A stretch of DNA of 64,000 nucleotides from Vulcanimicrobiota bacterium (lineage in GTDB: Bacteria > Vulcanimicrobiota > Vulcanimicrobiia > Vulcanimicrobiales > Vulcanimicrobiaceae): assembly GCA_963812155.1 (NCBI GenBank), contig CAWETW010000003.1, forward strand, positions 320,001 to 384,000, read 5' to 3'. The notes beneath the pieces are model-generated. The model searched no databases, was not told the DNA's origin, and saw nothing but the letters and a program-made list of their open reading frames with translations. Made by a program: the position numbers and the translations under genes. How positions within the stretch are numbered: the stretch's first letter is position 1; every line of letters begins with the position of its first letter. Of the stretch, positions 33,253 through 42,632 are shown one piece after another.

Positions 33253-33572
33253 GCCGCCTCTTCCAGATGCCGGCGCGCATCGTCGCGATTGGAGAAAACG
33301 TCGAAAACCTCGTACAATCCCGCATAGCGCACGATGCGGTCGAGCTGCGGCGTGGCGATGACGACCGCAACCGGCAAATCGCGTTCCTTCGCGACCAGGC
33401 GAAAGCGCAAGAGTTCGGTCAGCGCCGTCGAGTCGGCGTAGTCGACGCCGGACATGTCGAGCAGAACGCCGTCGGCTCCATCGACGGAAAGGGCGGCGCG
33501 CAACTCCTCTTTGCGCGCGATGTCGAGTTCGCCGCGCAGCGCGATGACGGCGATGTTCGGATTTTCTCTCAC
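33249..33572 (-). CDS. STAS domain anti-sigma antagonist
   Basis: LRGELDI, LDMSGVDYADSTAL. Confidence 0.85.
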   Translation of the reverse strand: MRENPNIAVIALRGELDIARKEELRAALSVDGADGVLLDMSGVDYADSTALTELLRFRLVAKERDLPVAVVIATPQLDRIVRYAGLYEVFDVFSNRDDARRHLEEAA

Positions 33573-35020
33573 GATGCGCGCACCTCGGCAAGCGCACCGA
33601 CGAGCGGCGGCGCGTCGGCGCTGGAAAACGAGAGCGTGAGGATGGCGACGTCGTCGCCGGCCGATGCGTCTTGGAAGATTCTCCGGTAAATCCAGTTCGC
33701 CGGATCGGCGCGCGGCGGTATTTTCGTGATTGCGTCGAGCAGCGCGCGTTCGCCCGCGAGAATGTCGTGCGACAGTTCGGTGACGCCGTCGGTGTAGAGT
33801 ACCAGCAGTGCGCCCGGAACGGTCGTGACGCGATGCAAACGATAGCCGGCGTCGGCTGAAATTCCCAGCGGCAAGCCGCCGTATTCCAAGCAGCGCGGCG
33901 CCACGCCCGGCTCGGCCAAAATCGGTGGAGGATGCCCTGCGCCGGAGTATGCAAACGTGCATCCGTGCGTCTCGGCGATGCCCACGAGTGCGGTGACGGT
34001 CGGAGCCTGCGAGGCGTCGCGGGTCAAGCGCTGGTTGACGCGCGCCAGTATTGCGGCAGCGTCGGCTTCGACTAATGCGGCTGCAAGAATTTCGTTGCGC
34101 ACGCGGCTCATCGTCACCGCAGCCGACATGCCGTGCCCGGCAACGTCGCCGATGGCGAAGAGCACGCGCCCCGCGCCGAGATCGAACGCGTCGTACCAGT
34201 CGCCTCCCACGCGCTCCTGTTCTCCGGCCGAAGCGTACGTCGAACTGAACGTCACCGAGGGCACCGCCGGGAGAGCGCGCTGCACGAAAGCACGCTGCAG
34301 CGTTTCGACCACGCGCCGTTCGGCGCTGAAGGCGGCGCGCAGGTCGCGTTCGCGCATCTGCATTTCTTCGCGCTCCCCTCGTGCCCGTTCCAACCGGCGC
34401 CACGCTTGAGCGGTGCTGTCGGCAAAGAAGAAGCCGATTGCGAAACTCAGCAGCGCCGAAACGACGATCAACGCGCCGAACTCCGCAAGTTCCCGCTCGG
34501 ATTCCAAGAGCAGGAGATCGTTTCGCCGGTCGAGCTCCGCGTCGACGACGTGCCAATCGTTGCGGAACCGGTCGACGAATCTCTTGCCGGCTTTCTGAAT
34601 CGTCAGGGTGCTCGTCTCGGGCTTGCGCAGCGAAGGGGCTGCGACCGACGTGACCCAGGCCGAGTTCACGTTGGCCGCGTCGGCGAGCGCGTTCTGCGCG
34701 TGTGCCAAGTGCAGCTGCACCAAGAGATCGTTCAACGCGGCAAACCTTCCGGGAAGCGCGTGTCGCGCGGTCTGGTACGGCGCCAGAAAGAGCCGGTCGC
34801 GCGTCGCAAGATAGCCGCGTAGGCCGGTTTCCTCGTCGAGCTGATCGCGCAGGGTCGCGAACAGCAGCGCGCGTGCACGGCGGATGCTTTGCGACGTGTC
34901 GAAGGTTCGGGCGACCGAGTTACGGATGGCCCAGCCGGCGCCGAATTGGACGACCACGACCAGGATCAACGCGCCGACCCACAACGATGTCCAAGGCCGC
35001 AACATGCGCCTCAACGGCAT
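33569..35020 (-). CDS. Membrane CHASE3-like sensor fused to SpoIIE/RsbU PP2C phosphatase
   Basis: DEETGLRGYL...FLAPY; VGGDWYD, GDVAGHG, AGHPPP, YTDGVTE, DDVAIL. Confidence 0.9.
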   Translation of the reverse strand: MPLRRMLRPWTSLWVGALILVVVVQFGAGWAIRNSVARTFDTSQSIRRARALLFATLRDQLDEETGLRGYLATRDRLFLAPYQTARHALPGRFAALNDLLVQLHLAHAQNALADAANVNSAWVTSVAAPSLRKPETSTLTIQKAGKRFVDRFRNDWHVVDAELDRRNDLLLLESERELAEFGALIVVSALLSFAIGFFFADSTAQAWRRLERARGEREEMQMRERDLRAAFSAERRVVETLQRAFVQRALPAVPSVTFSSTYASAGEQERVGGDWYDAFDLGAGRVLFAIGDVAGHGMSAAVTMSRVRNEILAAALVEADAAAILARVNQRLTRDASQAPTVTALVGIAETHGCTFAYSGAGHPPPILAEPGVAPRCLEYGGLPLGISADAGYRLHRVTTVPGALLVLYTDGVTELSHDILAGERALLDAITKIPPRADPANWIYRRIFQDASAGDDVAILTLSFSSADAPPLVGALAEVRAS

Positions 35021-35167
35021 GTGAAATTGCTTAGAGGGCGCGCCTTGGTTCCCTCTCACGCTCGCAGGCTTCCAGGCGTAACGGCGACTTTTATTGGTAT
35101 GAACAATGTGTCAGGGAGATGACAGACGGCGGGGCGCCGGCCTCCTATACTGGATCGAATGCCGCCC

Positions 35168-35908
35168 CTATGCGAGGGGCGGCACCGAGGTATAGAGTTG
35201 CTGATACGCCTTCGAGATCGCATGGTAGCACTCGCACGAGGCACCTTCGAGCCCGCTGCGATCGACGATGTGCACTCGGCCACGCCGGTAGCGGATCAAT
35301 CCCGCGCGCTGCAGGGCCGAGGCGGCCTCGGAGACGGTAGGCCGGCGGGAGCCGACCATTTCTGCGAGCAGCTCCTGGATAAGCTCGAAATCGTCGCTGC
35401 GCGCGCGGTCGGCGGTCGTCAAGAGCCATCGCGCGCAGCGTTGTACGGCGTTGTGCAGCCGGTTGCAGGCGGACGATTGCGAGATGACGTTGATCAAAAC
35501 GTTGGCATAACGCAGCAAGAAATCGCCGACGCGGGGCGCGCTTTGAACGATCCTCAAGAACTCGTCGGTGCCGATCAGGCACGCGATGCCTGGAACTTGG
35601 ATGAAGGAGCGGAGCGTTCCGGTTTCCCCACCGAGGATTGCCGAAATTCCAACCAGTCCTTCATTCCCAATCGTCACGGCTTCGATAGAGTCTCCGGCAT
35701 GCGTGCACGTAACCGTGGATGCGACGGCCGTCAGCGGAAAGCAGAAAAATTCGATGGGGTCGCCCGCGTTGTGGATCGTGAAACCGGTTTCGACGAATCG
35801 AACGTCGGCGGCCGTCTTGAGCGACGCCAAGGCGCTGGGTCCGAGCAACGCGAGCACGCGATTATCGGTGACGGGCAGTTTCAACTCGCCGGCGCGCTCG
35901 AGGTTCAT
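35168..35908 (-). CDS. Crp/Fnr family transcriptional regulator
   Basis: IGNEGLVG, ACNRLH...RCARWLL, QELLAEMVGSRRPTVS HTH. Confidence 0.9.
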   Translation of the reverse strand: MNLERAGELKLPVTDNRVLALLGPSALASLKTAADVRFVETGFTIHNAGDPIEFFCFPLTAVASTVTCTHAGDSIEAVTIGNEGLVGISAILGGETGTLRSFIQVPGIACLIGTDEFLRIVQSAPRVGDFLLRYANVLINVISQSSACNRLHNAVQRCARWLLTTADRARSDDFELIQELLAEMVGSRRPTVSEAASALQRAGLIRYRRGRVHIVDRSGLEGASCECYHAISKAYQQLYTSVPPLA

Positions 35909-35950
35909 CGCTGCGGCGCCTGGACGACTCTGACGAACGGACGGTATATT

Positions 35951-36268
35951 GTGGATTCCGAATCTTTGAACGGCGGCGCCTACGACGAAAGGGCGAACGT
36001 TCTCACGCTTTCCGGTGAGTGGGACTTTGCCGGGAAGGACGCGCTGCGAACCTTGACCGCACGGTTGCACGGTTCCCCCGCAGCGACGATCGACCTGTGC
36101 GGCGTACGCTTCATGGATTCTTCCGTCATCAACGAAATCTTTCGCACGTACAAACGGCTCGCCGCCGAGGGTGCTACGCTGCGTCTGGTCGTTGCCGACG
36201 AACGAATCGAGCGCTTGCTGCAAATAACGCAGGTGGATCAAGTCATGGAAGTCTCGCGCCGGGTTTAG
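35951..36268 (+). CDS. STAS domain protein
   Basis: LSGEWD, IDLCGVRFMDSSVI. Confidence 0.85.
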   Translation: MDSESLNGGAYDERANVLTLSGEWDFAGKDALRTLTARLHGSPAATIDLCGVRFMDSSVINEIFRTYKRLAAEGATLRLVVADERIERLLQITQVDQVMEVSRRV

Positions 36269-39200
36269 TGCGGAGTCGCGGCTTCGGCGACGGCTCGATT
36301 CATGGGCAGTAAGAGAAAACTCCGCCGCCGATCGTCGTCCTCGATGCTCGCCGCAAAGCGTTCGAGTTCCTCGCGCCCGCGCTGCGCCGCCTGTCGCGCT
36401 TCGTCTGACTTTCCAGCGGCCGCGTAACCCTGCGCCATGGCCCACCACGCGTAATGCGGCCACATCGCACCGGCGAAGTTGTTGCGGCTTAACGGTTCGA
36501 GCTCCGATGCCGTTGCAAGCGCGTCGCCGCTTCTCCCGGCGGAAACGTATGCCAGGATGAGGTCGGAGAGGTCGTCGACGAACTCGTGCGGTTCTTGGAT
36601 CGGCCGTCGCAACGCGATCCCCGCCTCCATGTGCGCGATTGCGGCGCGCGCATTGCCTAGGAGACGTTCTGCGTTTCCGAGATTGGAGAGCGCTGCGGCC
36701 TCGAACCCGGGAAACCCGATGTCGCGCGCGGTTTGCAAGGCCGTCTGCGCCATCGCTTTCGCGGCGGCGAGATTGCCGAGTTGCAGATGCAGGAAACTCT
36801 CGTTTACTTGATTGACGCAGGTCGTCCGCTTTTCGTGAACGACGTCGAGCAACGCGTTGGAGCGCTTGATGGAGTCCATCGCCTCGTGAAAAAGGCCGGA
36901 TTTCATCTGCAGCACGGTTCGATTTGCATACGTCAGCGCGAGGCCGCGTTTGTTTCCGAAGGAATCGTATGCGTCGATGGCGCGGTCGAACTCGCGCAGC
37001 GCGAGCGCGTAGTCGCCCAGACAGGTGGCCGTTGCAGCCAGACGGCCGCGGCTATAGGCTTCGCCCTCGCGATCGTTGGTGGCCAGCGATATTTCAAGCG
37101 AGCGTTGCGAGAGGTCGAATGCGGCGCGATACTCTTGGCGCAGCATGAGCGCCGTCGCCACCATCGCCAGCGCGCGAGCCTCTACCGCGCGATTGGCCAA
37201 GCTCGTCGAGCGTTCGCGCATGGCCTCGATATACGATCGAGACGCTTGCGTTTCGCCGATGTGCGACGTAATTTCGACCAGCAGAAAGAGCGCCTCGAAC
37301 TGGCCTTGCACGTCGCCAAGATCTTCATAGGATTCGAGCGCGCGGCGAGCGATATCGAGAGCCTCGGCGGAACGGCCGCACAGTTTGGCGTGCGTGGATG
37401 CATAAATCAGCGCTTGCGCGCGAGCCTCGCCGGTGCCGATCGCCTCGGCGGCTTCCCTCAACGCCGCGACGTAGCGGCCTTCTTCGTCGGAATCGCCCAA
37501 ACTGCGAGCCAGCATCACGCGGCGTTCGATGACGTCGAATCGCGCGCGCGGATTTCCCTCCGAAAGGGCGTCCAACGCGTCGATGTCCTCGCGTTGTCCG
37601 GTGCGGTCTCCGCGCCGTCCGCGCGCCTTCTCGCGGATGTCCAGTGCTGCCGCCCGCTCTTCATCGGACGCGGAAAGCGCGAGCGCACGGCCGGCCAGTT
37701 CGATTGCGTCGGCGTAGGCGTAGACCGCCGTGGCCGCGCGCGCCGCACTCAGATACCAGGCCGCTGCAGCCCGCGCATCCCCGGCAGCCTCGAAATGCAT
37801 CGCGATTTGCCGAGGCAAACCGGATTCGCTTTTGCGATAGGTCGTTTCGAGATAGCGAGCGATGCGAAGGTGGCGCTGCGAGCGAAAGGCCGGATCGATC
37901 TTGCGATACATCGCGTCGACGATGAGATGGTGGCTGAAAACGTAATCAACGTTCGTGCGCGCGCCGGCCTCACGGACGATTCGCCGTTCGAGCAATTCGT
38001 CGAGTCCGCGCGAAACCGCGGCGGCCGGCGCGTTCGAAACTTCGCGGAGGAGAGAGACGGTGAAGCCCAAACCGGCGACGGCCGCAAGCTCTGCAACATT
38101 GCGAGCCTCGGCACTGAGCGAGTCGAGGCGGCCGTCGATGAGCTGGGCGACGCTTTTCGAGACGGTCTCGGCTTCGGATACGCCGCGCTCGATCGCGGTT
38201 TCGATAGCCGCGGTGAGGAAAAACGCGTTGCCCTCGCTTTGTGCGTACAGCTTCGAGGCGAGATCTCCGCCGGCGTCGTGCAGCTCTTCGACGCGATCGA
38301 TCAGCGCCGAGACGTCGCGCGGCTCGAAGCGATCGATATCCAACTCCGACGCGTTGTCGAATACCTCTAACGATCGCTGCAGCGCGCGCACGGGATGGTC
38401 CGGGGGCGTTTGTTCTTCGCGACAGGTCCCGACGATCAGCACGGGTGCCGCCCCGATTTCCCGGACGATTGCGCCGACGGCTTCGGCCGTTGCCGAACCG
38501 GCCCAATGGAGATCTTCGAGAACGAGCAGCAGGGGTCGAGGCGATGCGAGACGATGGACGGCATCGCGCAATGCGTCGTGAACGCGCGCGGCCTCCTGAT
38601 CCGCGGTACGCTCGGCGGATACGACTGGGGAAACGGCCGCGTCGCGTATTTCGGGAACGAGCTGCGCCAAAATCGCGCGGCGTCCGGCGTCGGGTGGCCG
38701 CGCCAGCAGCAGAGGCAACGCCGAACGAAGCGCTTCGGCGATGGCTTGATACGGCAGCAGTTCGGGCATCGAGGTCGTTCCGGTGAAAACGCGGCCGCCT
38801 TCCGACTGCACTTTGCGGGCGAACTCGGAAACCAAGCGTGTCTTTCCCACGCCCGCTTCGCCGCGAAGTAAAACCAGCGATCCGGAACCGCGAGCCGCGC
38901 GCGTCCATACTGCTTGAAGTTTCTCTAACTCGCGCTCGCGCCCGACGAACGGAAAACCCGCGCGCTCTCGCGACGATGCGGTCGACGAACGTTCGACCGG
39001 AACGTTCAGGCTTCCGGGAAGCGCTTCGTTGCGCAGAATCGATTGCCGCAGACCGACCGTCTCGGGCATCGGTGCAACGTCGAGCTCGTCGCGGAGTCGT
39101 TTTGCAAAGCCTTCGTACTCCGCCAGCGCTCCCGACGTGTCGCCCGATTCGTAGCGCAGCGCAACGAGCTCGCGTAAGGCGTCTTCGCGCCACGGATCGG

Positions 39201-39780
39201 CGAGAAGAATGCGCTTCGCATCGGCGATCGCGTTTTCGAACCGGCGATCGGCACGATGCTTGTCGAGTAAGTGCTTCAACAACGCCAGGTACCGGGAGCG
39301 CAAGAGTTCGCGTTCGGCGAGCACCCAGTCTTCGTAGAGATCCGCCAGCAGGTCTCCGGTGTAGAGTTCGGCGGCCCGTTCCCAACTGTGCGGGTCGGCG
39401 CTCAATCGATCGAATTCGAGCACGTCCACGAAAGCGCCGCCTTCGGCATTCCAACGCACCGTTTCGGGGTCGACCGCAATCCACGGAACCGGCGAGGTGA
39501 GCGATTTGTTTGCCCGGTAAAGATAACGGCGAAGCTCGGCGAGCGCAGTCGCCTCGTCGGCCTCGGGAAACGTGAGATAGGCGAGGGCTTCGCGCGAGAC
39601 GGGATGGCCGCGCTTGAGCACGAGGTAGGCAATCATCGCCAGCGTGGTGGAGCGTTTGGCGAACTTTACCGGGACGCCGTCGAGCGTGATGGTCGCGTGC
39701 CCGAACAAACGGATATCGAGTTGACCGCGCTTGCCGGGAACCAGCGCCGTCGCCGTGCTTGCGCGCATGACCGCAGCCAT
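36265..39780 (-). CDS. SARP-type regulator: winged-helix/BTAD + STAND-type ATPase + TPR repeats
   Basis: IRLFG...REALAYLTFPE, VDVLEF, YTGDLL, DPWRE (BTAD); GEAGVGKT Walker A; LEDLHWA Walker B; helical C-terminal repeats. Confidence 0.9.
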   Translation of the reverse strand: MAAVMRASTATALVPGKRGQLDIRLFGHATITLDGVPVKFAKRSTTLAMIAYLVLKRGHPVSREALAYLTFPEADEATALAELRRYLYRANKSLTSPVPWIAVDPETVRWNAEGGAFVDVLEFDRLSADPHSWERAAELYTGDLLADLYEDWVLAERELLRSRYLALLKHLLDKHRADRRFENAIADAKRILLADPWREDALRELVALRYESGDTSGALAEYEGFAKRLRDELDVAPMPETVGLRQSILRNEALPGSLNVPVERSSTASSRERAGFPFVGRERELEKLQAVWTRAARGSGSLVLLRGEAGVGKTRLVSEFARKVQSEGGRVFTGTTSMPELLPYQAIAEALRSALPLLLARPPDAGRRAILAQLVPEIRDAAVSPVVSAERTADQEAARVHDALRDAVHRLASPRPLLLVLEDLHWAGSATAEAVGAIVREIGAAPVLIVGTCREEQTPPDHPVRALQRSLEVFDNASELDIDRFEPRDVSALIDRVEELHDAGGDLASKLYAQSEGNAFFLTAAIETAIERGVSEAETVSKSVAQLIDGRLDSLSAEARNVAELAAVAGLGFTVSLLREVSNAPAAAVSRGLDELLERRIVREAGARTNVDYVFSHHLIVDAMYRKIDPAFRSQRHLRIARYLETTYRKSESGLPRQIAMHFEAAGDARAAAAWYLSAARAATAVYAYADAIELAGRALALSASDEERAAALDIREKARGRRGDRTGQREDIDALDALSEGNPRARFDVIERRVMLARSLGDSDEEGRYVAALREAAEAIGTGEARAQALIYASTHAKLCGRSAEALDIARRALESYEDLGDVQGQFEALFLLVEITSHIGETQASRSYIEAMRERSTSLANRAVEARALAMVATALMLRQEYRAAFDLSQRSLEISLATNDREGEAYSRGRLAATATCLGDYALALREFDRAIDAYDSFGNKRGLALTYANRTVLQMKSGLFHEAMDSIKRSNALLDVVHEKRTTCVNQVNESFLHLQLGNLAAAKAMAQTALQTARDIGFPGFEAAALSNLGNAERLLGNARAAIAHMEAGIALRRPIQEPHEFVDDLSDLILAYVSAGRSGDALATASELEPLSRNNFAGAMWPHYAWWAMAQGYAAAGKSDEARQAAQRGREELERFAASIEDDDRRRSFLLLPMNRAVAEAATPH

Positions 39781-39814
39781 GTTCGAGAGCGAGCGCGATC
39801 CGGCCTGGAGCGCG

Positions 39815-39846
39815 TGCACGTTTTTGGCACGCCGCTCCGGTACGCT
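39815..39846 (+). promoter_or_regulatory. SARP-type direct-repeat box plus -10 element
   Basis: TGCACGT-tttt-GGCACGC-8 nt-TACGCT-6 nt-ATG. Confidence 0.65.
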
Positions 39847-39852
39847 TTGCGC

Positions 39853-40203
39853 ATGATAAAACATTTCACCGCATCCGCCGCGGCCATGGCGGCTCTTCTC
39901 ATCGCTTCCCCGGCGCTCGCCGCCGATCACGACGGCTCGCTGCCGCTCTATTCGCACGGCACCGTGGCGGCCGGAATGGGCGGCATTCCTGCAAGCGCGT
40001 TGGCTCAAGGCGTACCGTATCAGCAAACCACCAGCGATTCGGTCTCGACCGTCGATGCGTGGTATAAATCGAACGTGCCGAAATCGTGCACGCGGCTCGC
40101 CGCTTCCGGCGGCGTCCGCTACACGTGTCCGGGCGGCACCATCGTGATTCAAAACCACAACGGAACGTTGATCAGCTTGCTGCCGGCAATGCCGCATTTC
40201 TGA
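39853..40203 (+). CDS. Small secreted protein
   Basis: MIKHFTASAAAMAALLIASPALA signal peptide; two Cys in the mature part. Confidence 0.75.
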   Translation: MIKHFTASAAAMAALLIASPALAADHDGSLPLYSHGTVAAGMGGIPASALAQGVPYQQTTSDSVSTVDAWYKSNVPKSCTRLAASGGVRYTCPGGTIVIQNHNGTLISLLPAMPHF

Positions 40204-40226
40204 TCCCTCAGGAAATACGCAACCGC

Positions 40227-40254
40227 TGGATAGGCGACGTGCATCGCCTATCCA
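40227..40254. terminator. Hairpin between convergent genes
   Basis: tggataggcga-cgtgca-tcgcctatcca 11-bp stem. Confidence 0.7.
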
Positions 40255-40443
40255 TTAATCTTTCCGGGACTGTGAGGCGAGGTATGAGGCGATGAAATCG
40301 GCGACGTCGCGCGTGTCGGTGAAGAAGAGTCGCCTGCCGGAGGTGACTTCCTGGACGGAGCCGCGCCAGTGCGGCGCGCCGTCGAGCTCTTCGGTGCGCC
40401 ACGTTCTCACGAGGAACGTGACGTCACGCTTTTCCGAGTTCAC
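40255..40443 (-). CDS. Small hypothetical protein (FLVRxW...WRG...SGRRLFF)
   Basis: 62 aa; own promoter box; stop abuts the terminator hairpin. Confidence 0.75.
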   Translation of the reverse strand: MNSEKRDVTFLVRTWRTEELDGAPHWRGSVQEVTSGRRLFFTDTRDVADFIASYLASQSRKD

Positions 40444-40449
40444 GCCTCC

Positions 40450-40481
40450 AGCCTACGGCTAGGGCGTGCCGTGCGTGTGCC
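40450..40481 (-). promoter_or_regulatory. SARP-type direct-repeat box plus -10 element
   Basis: Minus strand GGCACAC-gcac-GGCACGC-8 nt-TAGGCT-6 nt-GTG. Confidence 0.65.
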
Positions 40482-40527: not shown

Positions 40528-40716
40528 ATGGCCATTCGATCGGAAAAGCGATTTCGGCGCGACCGCGCGGGCGAAATATTTCAGAGCGACCTCACCGAAG
40601 AAGACCTGCCGGCGCCGCCCGTGCGCGAGGAGGCGGATCACGATCTCCGGGGCGATCCCGGCGTAGATTCGCAAGAAGCCGACGAGTTCATGAAGCAGCG
40701 GAAGTTCGAACGGTGA
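40528..40716 (+). CDS. Small acidic hypothetical protein
   Basis: 62-aa ORF preceded by GTGTGG-N14-GGGTAG (40493-40518). Confidence 0.55.
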   Translation: MAIRSEKRFRRDRAGEIFQSDLTEEDLPAPPVREEADHDLRGDPGVDSQEADEFMKQRKFER

Positions 40717-40732
40717 AGCTGCCGGCGGGCGC

Positions 40733-41839
40733 TTAGCTCGGCCGCGTACGCGCGGCACGCGGAGAGCGCCGGCGCCGCGCGGGTTTCGCCGGCGACGCTT
40801 CGTTGGAAGCCGCAAGCAGCGCCTCGAGCACAGCAGTTTCATCCGCGTTCGAGCGGCTTGCGGCGCTCGCCAGTTCGAAACGGCCGTCGCGAACGAAGCG
40901 TTCGAATAGCGCAGGATGGATGTAGGACGAGCGGCAGACCGAGGGCGTGTTTCGCAGGCGCTTGGCGACGATGCGGCAGGCTTCCGCGACGGCGCCCTTG
41001 CGCTCGGCCGGAGACTCGGCGGGGTTACCGGCGAGCCATTGCGCGCACGTCGTGGTGGCAAGCCAGGTGCGGAAATCCTTTGCCGAATAATCGGCATTCG
41101 AAATCGCGCGGATGTAATCGTTGACGGCCGCCGAATCGATCGCCGCGACGCCGCCTTGTTCGTCGACGTAGCCGAACAGATGCTGGCCGGGCAAGTCCAA
41201 ACACTGCGCGACGATGCGCGCGATCCGCCGGTCGTGGAGATCGACCCGGTGCGGGATGCCGCTCTTACCTTTGAATTGAAATCGCAGGTCGGCGCCGCGA
41301 ACGCGCACGTGACCGTTGGTGAGCGTCGTCAGGCCGTAAGAATCGTTGGCGCGCGCGTACTCCTCGTTGCCGACCCGAATCAGCGTCGTCTCGAGCAGCG
41401 TCACGACCGCCGCGAGTACTTTTTCCTTGGGCATGCCCGGAAGCGCTAAGTCCTTGGCAACGCAATCGCGAATCGCCGGCAGCGCGGCTGCGAAGTCGAG
41501 CAAATGGGCAAACTTCGACGCGTCGCGCGTCTCGCGCCAGCGGGCGTGGTAGCGGTATTGTTTGCGTCCGCGCGCGTCCCGGCCCGTCGCTTGGATGTGT
41601 CCGTTGGGTTGGGGACAGATCCAGACCGATTCGTACGCCGGGGGAATCGCGAGTTTGGCGATGCGATCGCGCGTTGCGGCGTCGCGTACCGGCGTACCGT
41701 CGGGCCACACGTAGCGAAACTTTCCGCGACTGCGAAGGCGGCGTATCCCCGGCCCGTCGTCGGAAACGTACCGTAGACGCGCCTCGCGCGCGTCGCGTTC
41801 GGCCGGGGTGAGTTCCGTCGACGTGCCGGGCGCGCTCAT
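40733..41839 (-). CDS. DNA topoisomerase IB (bacterial/poxvirus-like)
   Basis: IPPAYESVWIC, GRDARGRKQYRY, IRVGNEEY, FKGKSG, KDFRTW, NTPSVCRSSYIHP (catalytic Tyr). Confidence 0.92.
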   Translation of the reverse strand: MSAPGTSTELTPAERDAREARLRYVSDDGPGIRRLRSRGKFRYVWPDGTPVRDAATRDRIAKLAIPPAYESVWICPQPNGHIQATGRDARGRKQYRYHARWRETRDASKFAHLLDFAAALPAIRDCVAKDLALPGMPKEKVLAAVVTLLETTLIRVGNEEYARANDSYGLTTLTNGHVRVRGADLRFQFKGKSGIPHRVDLHDRRIARIVAQCLDLPGQHLFGYVDEQGGVAAIDSAAVNDYIRAISNADYSAKDFRTWLATTTCAQWLAGNPAESPAERKGAVAEACRIVAKRLRNTPSVCRSSYIHPALFERFVRDGRFELASAASRSNADETAVLEALLAASNEASPAKPARRRRSPRAARTRPS

Positions 41840-41851
41840 GGCGCACTCGTT

Positions 41852-41931
41852 CTTCCCATGCCTGCCTGCCGAGAAACCCGAAGCCGCTAAGGACCCGCTA
41901 CGCGTTACCCATCCCGGCGCTGGGTAGAAAC
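41852..41931 (-). promoter_or_regulatory. Two tandem SigB/SigF-like promoters of TopIB
   Basis: GTTTCT-N15-GGGTAA (41931-41905) and GTTTCT-N14-GGGAAG (41877-41852). Confidence 0.55.
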
Positions 41932-42011
41932 GTGCGATGAGTCAGGCGCAAACGCTTTCCGGTCGCCCCGGATGCAATCGCCTAGCGGCGCTCTAGCGCA
42001 CGGCGAATCGA

Positions 42012-42632
42012 GTGCCGTACGAAACCGCAGCCGCCTATCTTCCGCGCACCACGTCGCTGCGGAGTTTGAAACGCGCGGCGGCGGGTTGCCGCGGCTGCGA
42101 CTTGTACGAGCACGCGACGCAAACCGTGTTCGGCGAAGGTTCGCGCGGTGCGCGGATCGTGCTGGTCGGCGAACAGCCGGGCGACCGCGAAGACATCGAA
42201 GGCGAGCCGTTCGTCGGACCGGCCGGCGCGATGCTGCAATCGGCGATCGAAGAAGCCGGCATCGATCGTTCCGGCGTGTACGTTACCAACGCCGTCAAGC
42301 ACTTTCGCTTCGTCGTGCGGGGGAAACGGCGCATCCACCAAAAGCCTCGCGCGATCGAGATCGACGCCTGCCGGCCCTGGCTCGATGCTGAAATTGCCGC
42401 CGTGGATCCGCGCACCATCGTCGCGATGGGCGCGACCGCCGCACGCAGCCTGCTCGGCCGTCCGGTGCGTATCGGCGACCGGCGTGGAAAGCCGCTGACC
42501 AGCGACGGCCGCACCATTTTCGTGACGATCCATCCGGCGAGCGTGCTGCGGCAGCCCGACCGCAACGCCCGGCGCGCCGCGTTCGCACGCCTCGTCGCCG
42601 ACCTTCGTGCGGCCGGCGAAACGGCGCGGTGA
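42012..42632 (+). CDS. udgX: UdgX-family uracil-DNA binding protein
   Basis: CRGC, GEQPG, TNAVKHF, KRRIHQKP R-loop, HPAS. Confidence 0.9.
   Translation: MPYETAAAYLPRTTSLRSLKRAAAGCRGCDLYEHATQTVFGEGSRGARIVLVGEQPGDREDIEGEPFVGPAGAMLQSAIEEAGIDRSGVYVTNAVKHFRFVVRGKRRIHQKPRAIEIDACRPWLDAEIAAVDPRTIVAMGATAARSLLGRPVRIGDRRGKPLTSDGRTIFVTIHPASVLRQPDRNARRAAFARLVADLRAAGETAR

Follow-up and report, generated by a model that had tools for sequence, protein, structure and literature searches.

We identified two promoters of the same design beside the gene of a large regulator of the SARP type (Streptomyces antibiotic regulatory protein) in a Vulcanimicrobiota bacterium, in a stretch of 64,000 nucleotides (positions 320,001 to 384,000 of the forward strand of contig CAWETW010000003.1, GenBank assembly GCA_963812155.1; hereafter the window, in genome G000). 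One promoter precedes a gene for a predicted secreted protein of 116 amino acids (aa) and the other, on the opposite strand, a gene for a 62-aa protein, and the pattern that they share is beyond chance. The conserved unit is the regulator and the 62-aa gene, not three genes. From sequence comparisons, we consider it on balance probable that the regulator is an AfsR-type activator which binds paired GCACG repeats and turns on about ten genes, and that the small protein feeds back on this activation.

Both promoters were found exactly where a first-pass annotation of this DNA had placed them: TGCACGT-N4-GGCACGC-N8-TACGCT-N6-ATG at 39815-39855 on the forward strand and GGCACAC-N4-GGCACGC-N8-TAGGCT-N6-GTG at 40481-40441 on the reverse strand. 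Each is retained in two relatives (G001 and G007). The genome scan which that annotation had suggested, for GCACR-N6-GCACR-N9-TAnnnT, yielded seven matches, five of them independent of the definition of the pattern. When the spacers in GCACR-Nx-GCACR-Ny-TAnnnT were varied over 120 pairs, seven matches occurred at (6,9) and 0-2 at each of the other 119 (21 in total, mean 0.18). In 41 genomes, 67 strict matches were detected, spread over 20 genomes, versus 13 for the reversed pattern. The suggested scan of relatives was also positive. Among 40 genomes counted (G036 was left out), the motif was present in 19 of 21 with a close orthologue of the winged helix-turn-helix (wHTH) region (at least 45% identity, one present as a fragment) and in one of the 19 others (G019); since kin are not independent, no test statistic is given for these counts. 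The two exceptions were G032, in which the second repeat word before the small gene is a variant, and G002, whose assembly is fragmented and 65% complete and in which the word before the small gene is likewise a variant. Two candidates were set aside: a strict match at C3:1276099, antisense inside a tadA-like gene, was treated as chance, and negative autoregulation via a TATCAT hexamer overlapping the start of the secreted gene was dropped, as the hexamer is not conserved in G001.

The regulator has the sequence features of the large SARP family with a signal transduction ATPase with numerous domains (STAND): wHTH and BTAD domains, a P-loop ATPase of the AAA_16 type with Walker A and B motifs, then TPR. 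Pfam matches above cut-off were obtained for BTAD (8.6e-18), AAA_16 (1.5e-29) and TPR_12 (3.6e-9); Trans_reg_C was not matched by the regulator itself and was matched by a relative. Walker A (GEAGVGKT at 307) and Walker B (LEDLHW at 421) are both intact and are conserved in orthologues, and no transmembrane segment was detected (top 19-residue hydropathy 1.6). An alternative ATG is located at 39768. The N-terminus aligns with EmbR and AfsR, and a regulator-family profile of 145 rows covers the whole SARP domain of AfsR (8hvr, E 3.4e-28, positions 3-238). With the AfsR equivalog NF053617, the regulator scored 42.4 bits, the curated cut-off being 1430. The target promoters likewise fit the SARP rule: their direct repeats have a period of 11 bp, and the -10 hexamer follows about 8 bp after the last one. 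As described in the available portions of one structural study, SARP repeats are spaced by 11 or 22 bp, with 8 bp between the last repeat and the -10 element; the AfsR box runs from -40 to -19, two protomers make contact with its repeats over the first 8 bp of each, and T88 and R92 of helix alpha3 read bases (PMC10936776). If the start codon is +1, the repeats in the window end at -33 and -22, as do the 8 bp contacted by AfsR, and R85 of the regulator aligns with AfsR T88. In geometry and domain order, the predicted boxes and the regulator correspond to the known design of AfsR at afsS. Activation of both promoters by the adjacent protein, which the first-pass annotation had proposed, is supported by the domains, by the way the motif tracks the regulator and by the AfsR profile match, and the regulator very probably works like AfsR, with a regulon.

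The extent of this regulon was assessed with a matrix built from 29 promoters of small genes in other genomes (G000, G001 and G007 excluded). In G000, it gave 9 matches of at least 20 bits at the native spacing versus 0-4 at 34 shifted spacings. About ten promoters in the genome carry the predicted box, mostly before genes for predicted secreted proteins. Among the top ten boxes, besides those of both window genes, are boxes of a multicopper oxidase gene whose product has a signal peptide, of two lipoprotein-like genes, of a gene for a membrane-anchored protein and of one for a lipoprotein that is probably frameshifted; for two or three of the ten, no clear open reading frame (ORF) lies directly downstream. 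We examined 50 of the 67 strict matches (43 from ten relatives and seven from G000). A hydrophobic N-terminus was present in 32 of the 50 ORFs 3′ of the motif, compared with 394 of 1365 background ORFs under the same crude rule. ATG or GTG lay exactly 6 nt past the -10 hexamer in 18 of the 50, a count that takes in both window sites and their orthologues, and in 0-3 at other offsets. The remaining targets have leaders with Shine-Dalgarno-like words, and the promoter class is therefore mixed.

Several individual boxes deserve mention. The boxed gene at G000:C3:253174 (reverse strand, L180) is seemingly frameshifted near its start relative to a 186-aa lipoprotein of G007 (L135), being either a pseudogene or the product of an assembly error. 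Two convergent boxed promoters, G000:C3:1289641 (forward) and 1291095 (reverse), lie 1.4 kb apart near a contig end and fairly near an integrase-like gene at ~1300737; the box at 1291095 precedes short ORFs only. In three relatives (G010, G013 and G003; L132, L143 and L146, respectively), a GCACG box was found before proteins of ~110-130 aa with an N-terminal ALNxQPIPP and no signal peptide, and in G010 and G013 these genes are directly upstream of the regulator.

Linkage of the small gene to SARP genes extends well beyond close relatives. A search of the phylum gave 99 small-gene matches, and 78 regions around these and the matches in close relatives were fetched, those left unfetched being mostly weaker matches. 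All 78 Eremiobacterota loci hold a match to the regulator, with the SARP domain included in 74 and partial matches in 4. Gene order varied (regulator then small gene in 44, small gene then regulator in 19, divergent in 8, convergent in 7), and the two genes were within 400 bp of each other in 71. In an unselected cross-count, 36 of 37 small-gene matches had a BTAD match within 4 kb; the remaining one was located on a very short contig. In addition, a degenerate pattern scan of GTDB genomes gave at least 120 matches, of which 80 with flanks were examined (pattern-found loci). Most of these belonged to Pseudomonadota and Chloroflexota, with three from Eremiobacterota and one from Acidobacteriota; single Bacteroidota and archaeal rows are contigs of metagenome-assembled genomes and may be misbinned. 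A wHTH-BTAD gene was present in 70 of the 80 (SARP-only in 52, joined to ATPase/TPR in 15 and carrying another long tail in 3), and one further locus had a partial one. The 52 SARP-only partners imply that the common element is the SARP domain, not the ATPase or TPR domains. Downstream genes in 13 annotated loci include those for multi-hydrolases of amidase, trypsin and papain types in Proteobacteria, and for sheath, tube, Pvc16 and core proteins of extracellular contractile injection systems (eCIS) in Chloroflexota. The small gene is retained while the outputs differ (secreted proteins, eCIS genes or multi-hydrolase genes), and it heads the output operon in those loci of Proteobacteria and Chloroflexota that were examined. 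A correlation of 0.72 between SARP and small-protein distances is expected from linkage and was not used.

Some groups of loci show features of their own. In L188-L256 (Lysobacteraceae and Burkholderiales), four GTGAT repeats of 11-bp period, with inverted ATCAC copies 5′ of them, precede the small gene, which in the annotated loci is followed by a 1100-1770-aa amidase/trypsin/Peptidase_C70 protein and a conserved 320-aa unknown protein. In L195, L224 and L237 (Chloroflexota), a SARP-only gene and the small gene head eCIS operons, some with AGACG-type repeats, which are a candidate eCIS operator; L231 resembles these loci and has no Pfam match.

The promoters of small genes carry a common pattern with changing words. 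An unbiased scan of 81 upstream regions detected an exact 5-mer repeat with a period of 11 and a gap of 9 to TAnnnT in 23, versus 0-2 at other periods; with one mismatch allowed, the numbers were 47 at period 11 versus at most 8 elsewhere. At least three repeat copies at period 11 were present in 43 of the 80 pattern-found loci, with 2-5 loci at other periods. Among 56 promoters with a recognisable repeat, an in-frame start lay 6 nt past the hexamer in 31 and 7 nt past it in 7. Together with the same spacing among strict matches, this favours the leaderless starts that had been predicted for both window genes. The repeat word corresponds to the predicted recognition helix of the neighbouring regulator: the pairing held in 33 of 36 loci for LRRY and GYACG, in 26 of 36 for LRR[HN] and RGACG, and in 40 of 41 for xNT/xST and GTGA. 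The word also changes with the helix of the adjacent paralogue inside single genomes (G000 and G037). In G000, which is 84% complete (2.96 Mb) and has four BTAD genes, a second small gene adjoins a paralogue regulator (30% identical, with another helix) and has its own repeat, AGACG-N6-AGACG-N9-TACCAT. An AGACG regulon of this paralogue was sought in the genome, and its own small gene was the sole target found. As read from these sequences, the helix-word match assigns boxes to neighbouring regulators and is not proof of co-evolution; a claim of co-evolution was reduced to consistency with it, as independent pairs were too few. Two side observations concern these promoters. The second pair of G000 (C3:295733-299370, L021) is convergent, and the KLRMNL/KLRASL helix clade (L106, L115, L118 and L121) appears to have GAACG-type repeats at a 10-bp period.

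The 62-aa protein belongs to a large unnamed family. It was matched in 24 of 41 relatives and in 64 of 201 genomes of the phylum (both tallies include G036), and homologues of the two small genes are named from Candidatus Cybelea, Tumulicola and Baltobacteraceae, which makes Eremiobacterota (Vulcanimicrobiota) the likely source of the window. A 145-row profile retrieved 6,916 clusters at 50% identity, and the best 150 of these were nearly all stand-alone proteins of 58-142 aa. Neither Pfam nor NCBIfam gave a meaningful match for this protein or for the secreted one. The predicted structure (pLDDT 88) consists of strands 10-17, 25-32 and 38-41 and a helix at 44-61. F10, W15, W26, R27 and G28 are at least 90% conserved, partly by selection in the pattern-found rows; in a set of 79 Eremiobacterota rows, the residues at this level are F10, W15, R27 and F50. 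The Trp and Arg residues are constant while the DNA word varies, and the median net charge of the family is 0. A fold search of the model with VIA-align placed YaiA first (Z 5.2, rmsd 3.8, 60 aligned), ahead of tied generic matches to T7 gp1.2, hibernation factors, double-stranded RNA-binding domains (dsRBDs) and an AP2 domain (Z 3.8). Foldseek found none at E of 0.001 or lower, which does not show that the fold is new. The profile compared with 25 integrase arm-binding domains gave a probability of 0.2%, under that of a reversed control (3.5%), and the best E in a PDB sequence search was 0.18. As separate observations, the small domain is fused to a globin domain in one protein and is tandemly duplicated in others (P0279, P0272 and P0159).

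These data suggest the following mechanism. The 1171-aa protein would act as an AfsR-type activator, binding paired GCACG repeats and turning on about ten genes, mostly for predicted secreted proteins, along with the 62-aa gene. By analogy with AfsR, for which the available portions of the structural study describe ATPase and TPR domains that are inhibitory until ATP is bound, these domains may keep the regulator off until a cytoplasmic signal and ATP binding free it; a pair of SARP domains would then occupy the repeats next to each other (about -37 to -22), recruiting RNA polymerase via sigma region 4 (PMC10936776). From genomics alone, we propose that the small protein has as its contact either the wHTH-BTAD domain or that surface of the polymerase which this domain uses, and would feed back on the activation step, if so most likely as a brake. 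Among the predicted targets of the activator, the small gene is the most constant. Linkage in every orientation, in the presence or absence of sensor domains and with any output, the constant Trp and Arg residues and the net charge of 0 point to a conserved protein surface as the contact, and this charge fits protein contact better than DNA binding. That the small protein modulates SARP activation in this way, through the SARP domain or its polymerase contacts and with either sign, we regard as an even proposition. A negative sign is a tentative suggestion, favoured since, for an activator that lacks a sensor, the simplest role of an induced partner is that of an off-switch. Equally tentative is the extension to the whole family, whose members might be dedicated SARP feedback inhibitors across phyla, each induced via the word of its neighbour and binding the wHTH-BTAD domain or the docking surface for sigma region 4. 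A complex prediction, for which the SARP domain alone was tried with the small protein, scored 0.02 against a mark of 0.32 and bears neither way.

The strongest alternative, which we consider unlikely, is that the 62-aa protein is a downstream effector that binds nucleic acid or polymerase and, in the manner of AfsS, passes on or amplifies the signal to other genes. A beta-beta-beta-alpha topology is that of AP2, integrase-arm and dsRBD domains, and the model of the small protein, with its conserved Arg and aromatic residues, shares it with the AP2 and integrase arm-binding sheet domains. Its place at the head of output operons would also suit an effector, and the accessible parts of work on AfsR and afsS provide a precedent, a 63-aa target adjoining its activator that is a positive regulator (PMC2267785). 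However, the neutral median charge argues against such a role, the core is conserved though operator words and target genes differ between phyla, and no relay is needed, as the secreted targets themselves carry the predicted SARP box.

The first-pass annotation had suggested that the locus may be a self-contained three-gene sensor-response cassette, with one regulator, two targets and one common terminator. Three-gene order is indeed kept in G001 and G007, and all three genes occur together, rearranged, in G014; the secreted gene beside the regulator is a genus-level arrangement (G000, G001 and G007). Yet about eight further boxes are located elsewhere in the genome, and homologues of the secreted gene are boxed without the regulator nearby (L131 and L170-L172). 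The hairpin between the two convergent genes was confirmed (z -3.9 on the forward and -3.3 on the reverse strand); however, its U-rich tail is on the forward strand only, and it is kept in G001 and replaced in G007, so it is not a conserved feature common to both genes. With a box that precedes about ten genes, a secreted gene that is unlinked elsewhere and a hairpin that lacks conservation, a three-gene cassette is too narrow a reading, and we consider it very unlikely. The secreted protein itself has a signal-peptide-like N-terminus, two invariant Cys residues and a predicted alpha/beta fold. Foldseek gave no significant match for it, structure-atlas matches were all <0.9, and PDB sequence matches to lectins were rejected, being mostly within the signal-peptide region; Rfam gave no meaningful match for the region.

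It is still less probable that the repeats are read by a different factor, for example an alternative sigma factor or a regulator of the OmpR type (wHTH proteins of this type likewise bind repeats with an 11-bp period), and that the SARP gene is a mere neighbour. In favour of this are two strict matches in G019 without a close wHTH orthologue and the incompleteness and four BTAD genes of G000; against it, the motif tracks the orthologue and the word follows the helix of the adjacent paralogue within G000 and G037.

Several points weigh against the reading of an AfsR-type activator with a small feedback partner. All support for it is sequence-based, and linkage cannot give the sign of feedback. 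Only 35 of ~150 BTAD matches in the 41 genomes have a small gene within 4 kb; SARP domains therefore do not generally need it, and the association concerns one SARP subfamily. No SARP gene was present in 9 of the 80 pattern-found loci, 3 of which have <1.2 kb upstream and 4 the full 5.9 kb. As judged by eye, 6 of the 43 strict matches in relatives have no plausible gene behind them. The word classes were drawn after the data had been seen, trees built without the helix leave 1-3 independent helix-word pairs, and in the RLRST and KLRMNL helix clades no period-11 repeat was found before the small gene. In addition, strand alternation places the conserved residues R13, W15, R27, R38 and Y/F40 of the small protein probably on one sheet face, as in nucleic-acid-binding three-stranded sheets.

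The closest known system is AfsR/afsS of Streptomyces coelicolor (PDB 8HVR, 8K60 and 8JKE), which shares the SARP-ATPase-TPR order, an acidic HTH loop, two direct repeats of 11-bp period ending 8-9 bp before -10, and a box-driven target gene of ~62 aa adjoining the activator. It differs in several respects: the ATPase is NB-ARC in AfsR and AAA_16 in our regulator, the word here is GCACG, with Arg at the position of AfsR T88, and the targets are predicted secreted proteins rather than antibiotic regulators. According to the available portions of two reports, AfsS has 63 aa and is made up of three copies of a 12-aa segment (PMC2267785; bioRxiv 10.64898/2026.09.02.748808), whereas the 62-aa protein is a predicted folded, repeat-free domain found in several phyla; self-comparison of the latter gave at most 2/8 identities at any offset of 8-24. 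Thus, judged by such features, the system very probably works like AfsR-afsS and is not a member of it, and the 62-aa protein is not an AfsS homologue. Small SARPs (ActII-ORF4, DnrI, EmbR 2FEZ and BagI/FevR) have the same wHTH-BTAD domain. The SARP-only partners of Proteobacteria and Chloroflexota match BTAD, and one that was tested weakly matches BagI/FevR; unlike those small SARPs, they precede eCIS or multi-hydrolase operons, often with four GTGA repeats. A dedicated small partner of small SARPs was not described in the literature searched. Among STAND activators, those of the MalT type have the protein inhibitors MalY, Aes and MalK. Tuning by a protein partner, the role proposed here for the small protein, would be a likeness; however, MalT partners are large enzymes or transporters that act on the ATPase/sensor part, whereas the linkage here points to the SARP domain. 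Geller et al. 2021 (PMC8213781) list BTAD among the shell domains of eCIS, where it is likely a regulator, and several of our Chloroflexota loci are eCIS loci; the available portions of that paper name neither the operator nor the small gene, and the window contains no eCIS.

The promoter design is already known; new are the Eremiobacterota regulon, the table of helices and repeat words, and the large partner family, which has no name. What is known of SARP activation comes almost entirely from Streptomyces and Mycobacterium, and here a predicted regulon can be read, with operator, predicted starts and some ten targets, in a soil phylum with almost no cultured members. The findings point to thousands of unnamed small proteins that regularly accompany one SARP subfamily, in three phyla or more, and whose promoters report the cognate operator word of each regulator. 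Carriers in culture include Lysobacter sp. Root76 and Pseudoxanthomonas suwonensis (loci L226 and L254) and Roseateles. No account of the small-protein family or of SARP regulons in Eremiobacterota was found in the literature, supplements, which could list the family, not being covered. A brake would represent a layer of SARP control for which no description turned up in the literature searched. If the family does consist of feedback inhibitors, SARP regulons outside Actinobacteria would have a general off-switch, with programmes for secreted proteins, hydrolases and eCIS among those under its control.

Table 1. Features of the regulator locus in the window. Bit scores are from the matrix built on other genomes.
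Feature	Position	Strand	Basis
Large SARP/STAND regulator, 1171 aa	36265..39780	-	Pfam BTAD, AAA_16, TPR_12; EmbR/AfsR match
Predicted recognition helix ELRRYLY, aligned to AfsR helix alpha3	39508..39546	-	Alignment; helix class versus repeat word
Predicted SARP box of secreted gene: two direct repeats, GCACG core, 11-bp period	39815..39832	+	Kept in G001, G007; 25.5 bits
-10-like hexamer TACGCT, 6 nt 5′ of ATG; predicted leaderless start 39853	39841..39846	+	Spacing
Predicted secreted protein, 116 aa, predicted regulon member	39853..40203	+	30 homologues; model mean pLDDT 78.8
11-bp-stem hairpin between convergent genes, terminator-like mainly for + strand	40227..40254	.	Fold z-scores
62-aa protein, SARP-associated unnamed small-protein family, predicted beta-beta-beta-alpha	40255..40443	-	Linkage, profile, model
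-10-like hexamer TAGGCT, 6 nt 5′ of GTG; predicted leaderless start 40443	40450..40455	-	Spacing
Predicted SARP box of small gene: two direct repeats GCACA/GCACG, 11-bp period	40464..40481	-	22.3 bits; kept in G001, G007

Genes on both sides of the locus were also inspected. The interval 40528-42632 holds a 62-aa acidic ORF, a type IB topoisomerase (40733-41839, reverse strand) and a gene of the uracil-DNA-glycosylase family (42012-42632). The acidic ORF and the topoisomerase are not part of the module, since both lie 7 kb from it in G001. Just past the 3′ end of the regulator gene, at 33267-36268, are anti-sigma/anti-anti-sigma-like, phosphatase-like and Crp-like ORFs (families judged by eye), which are syntenic in G001 and in part also in G007.

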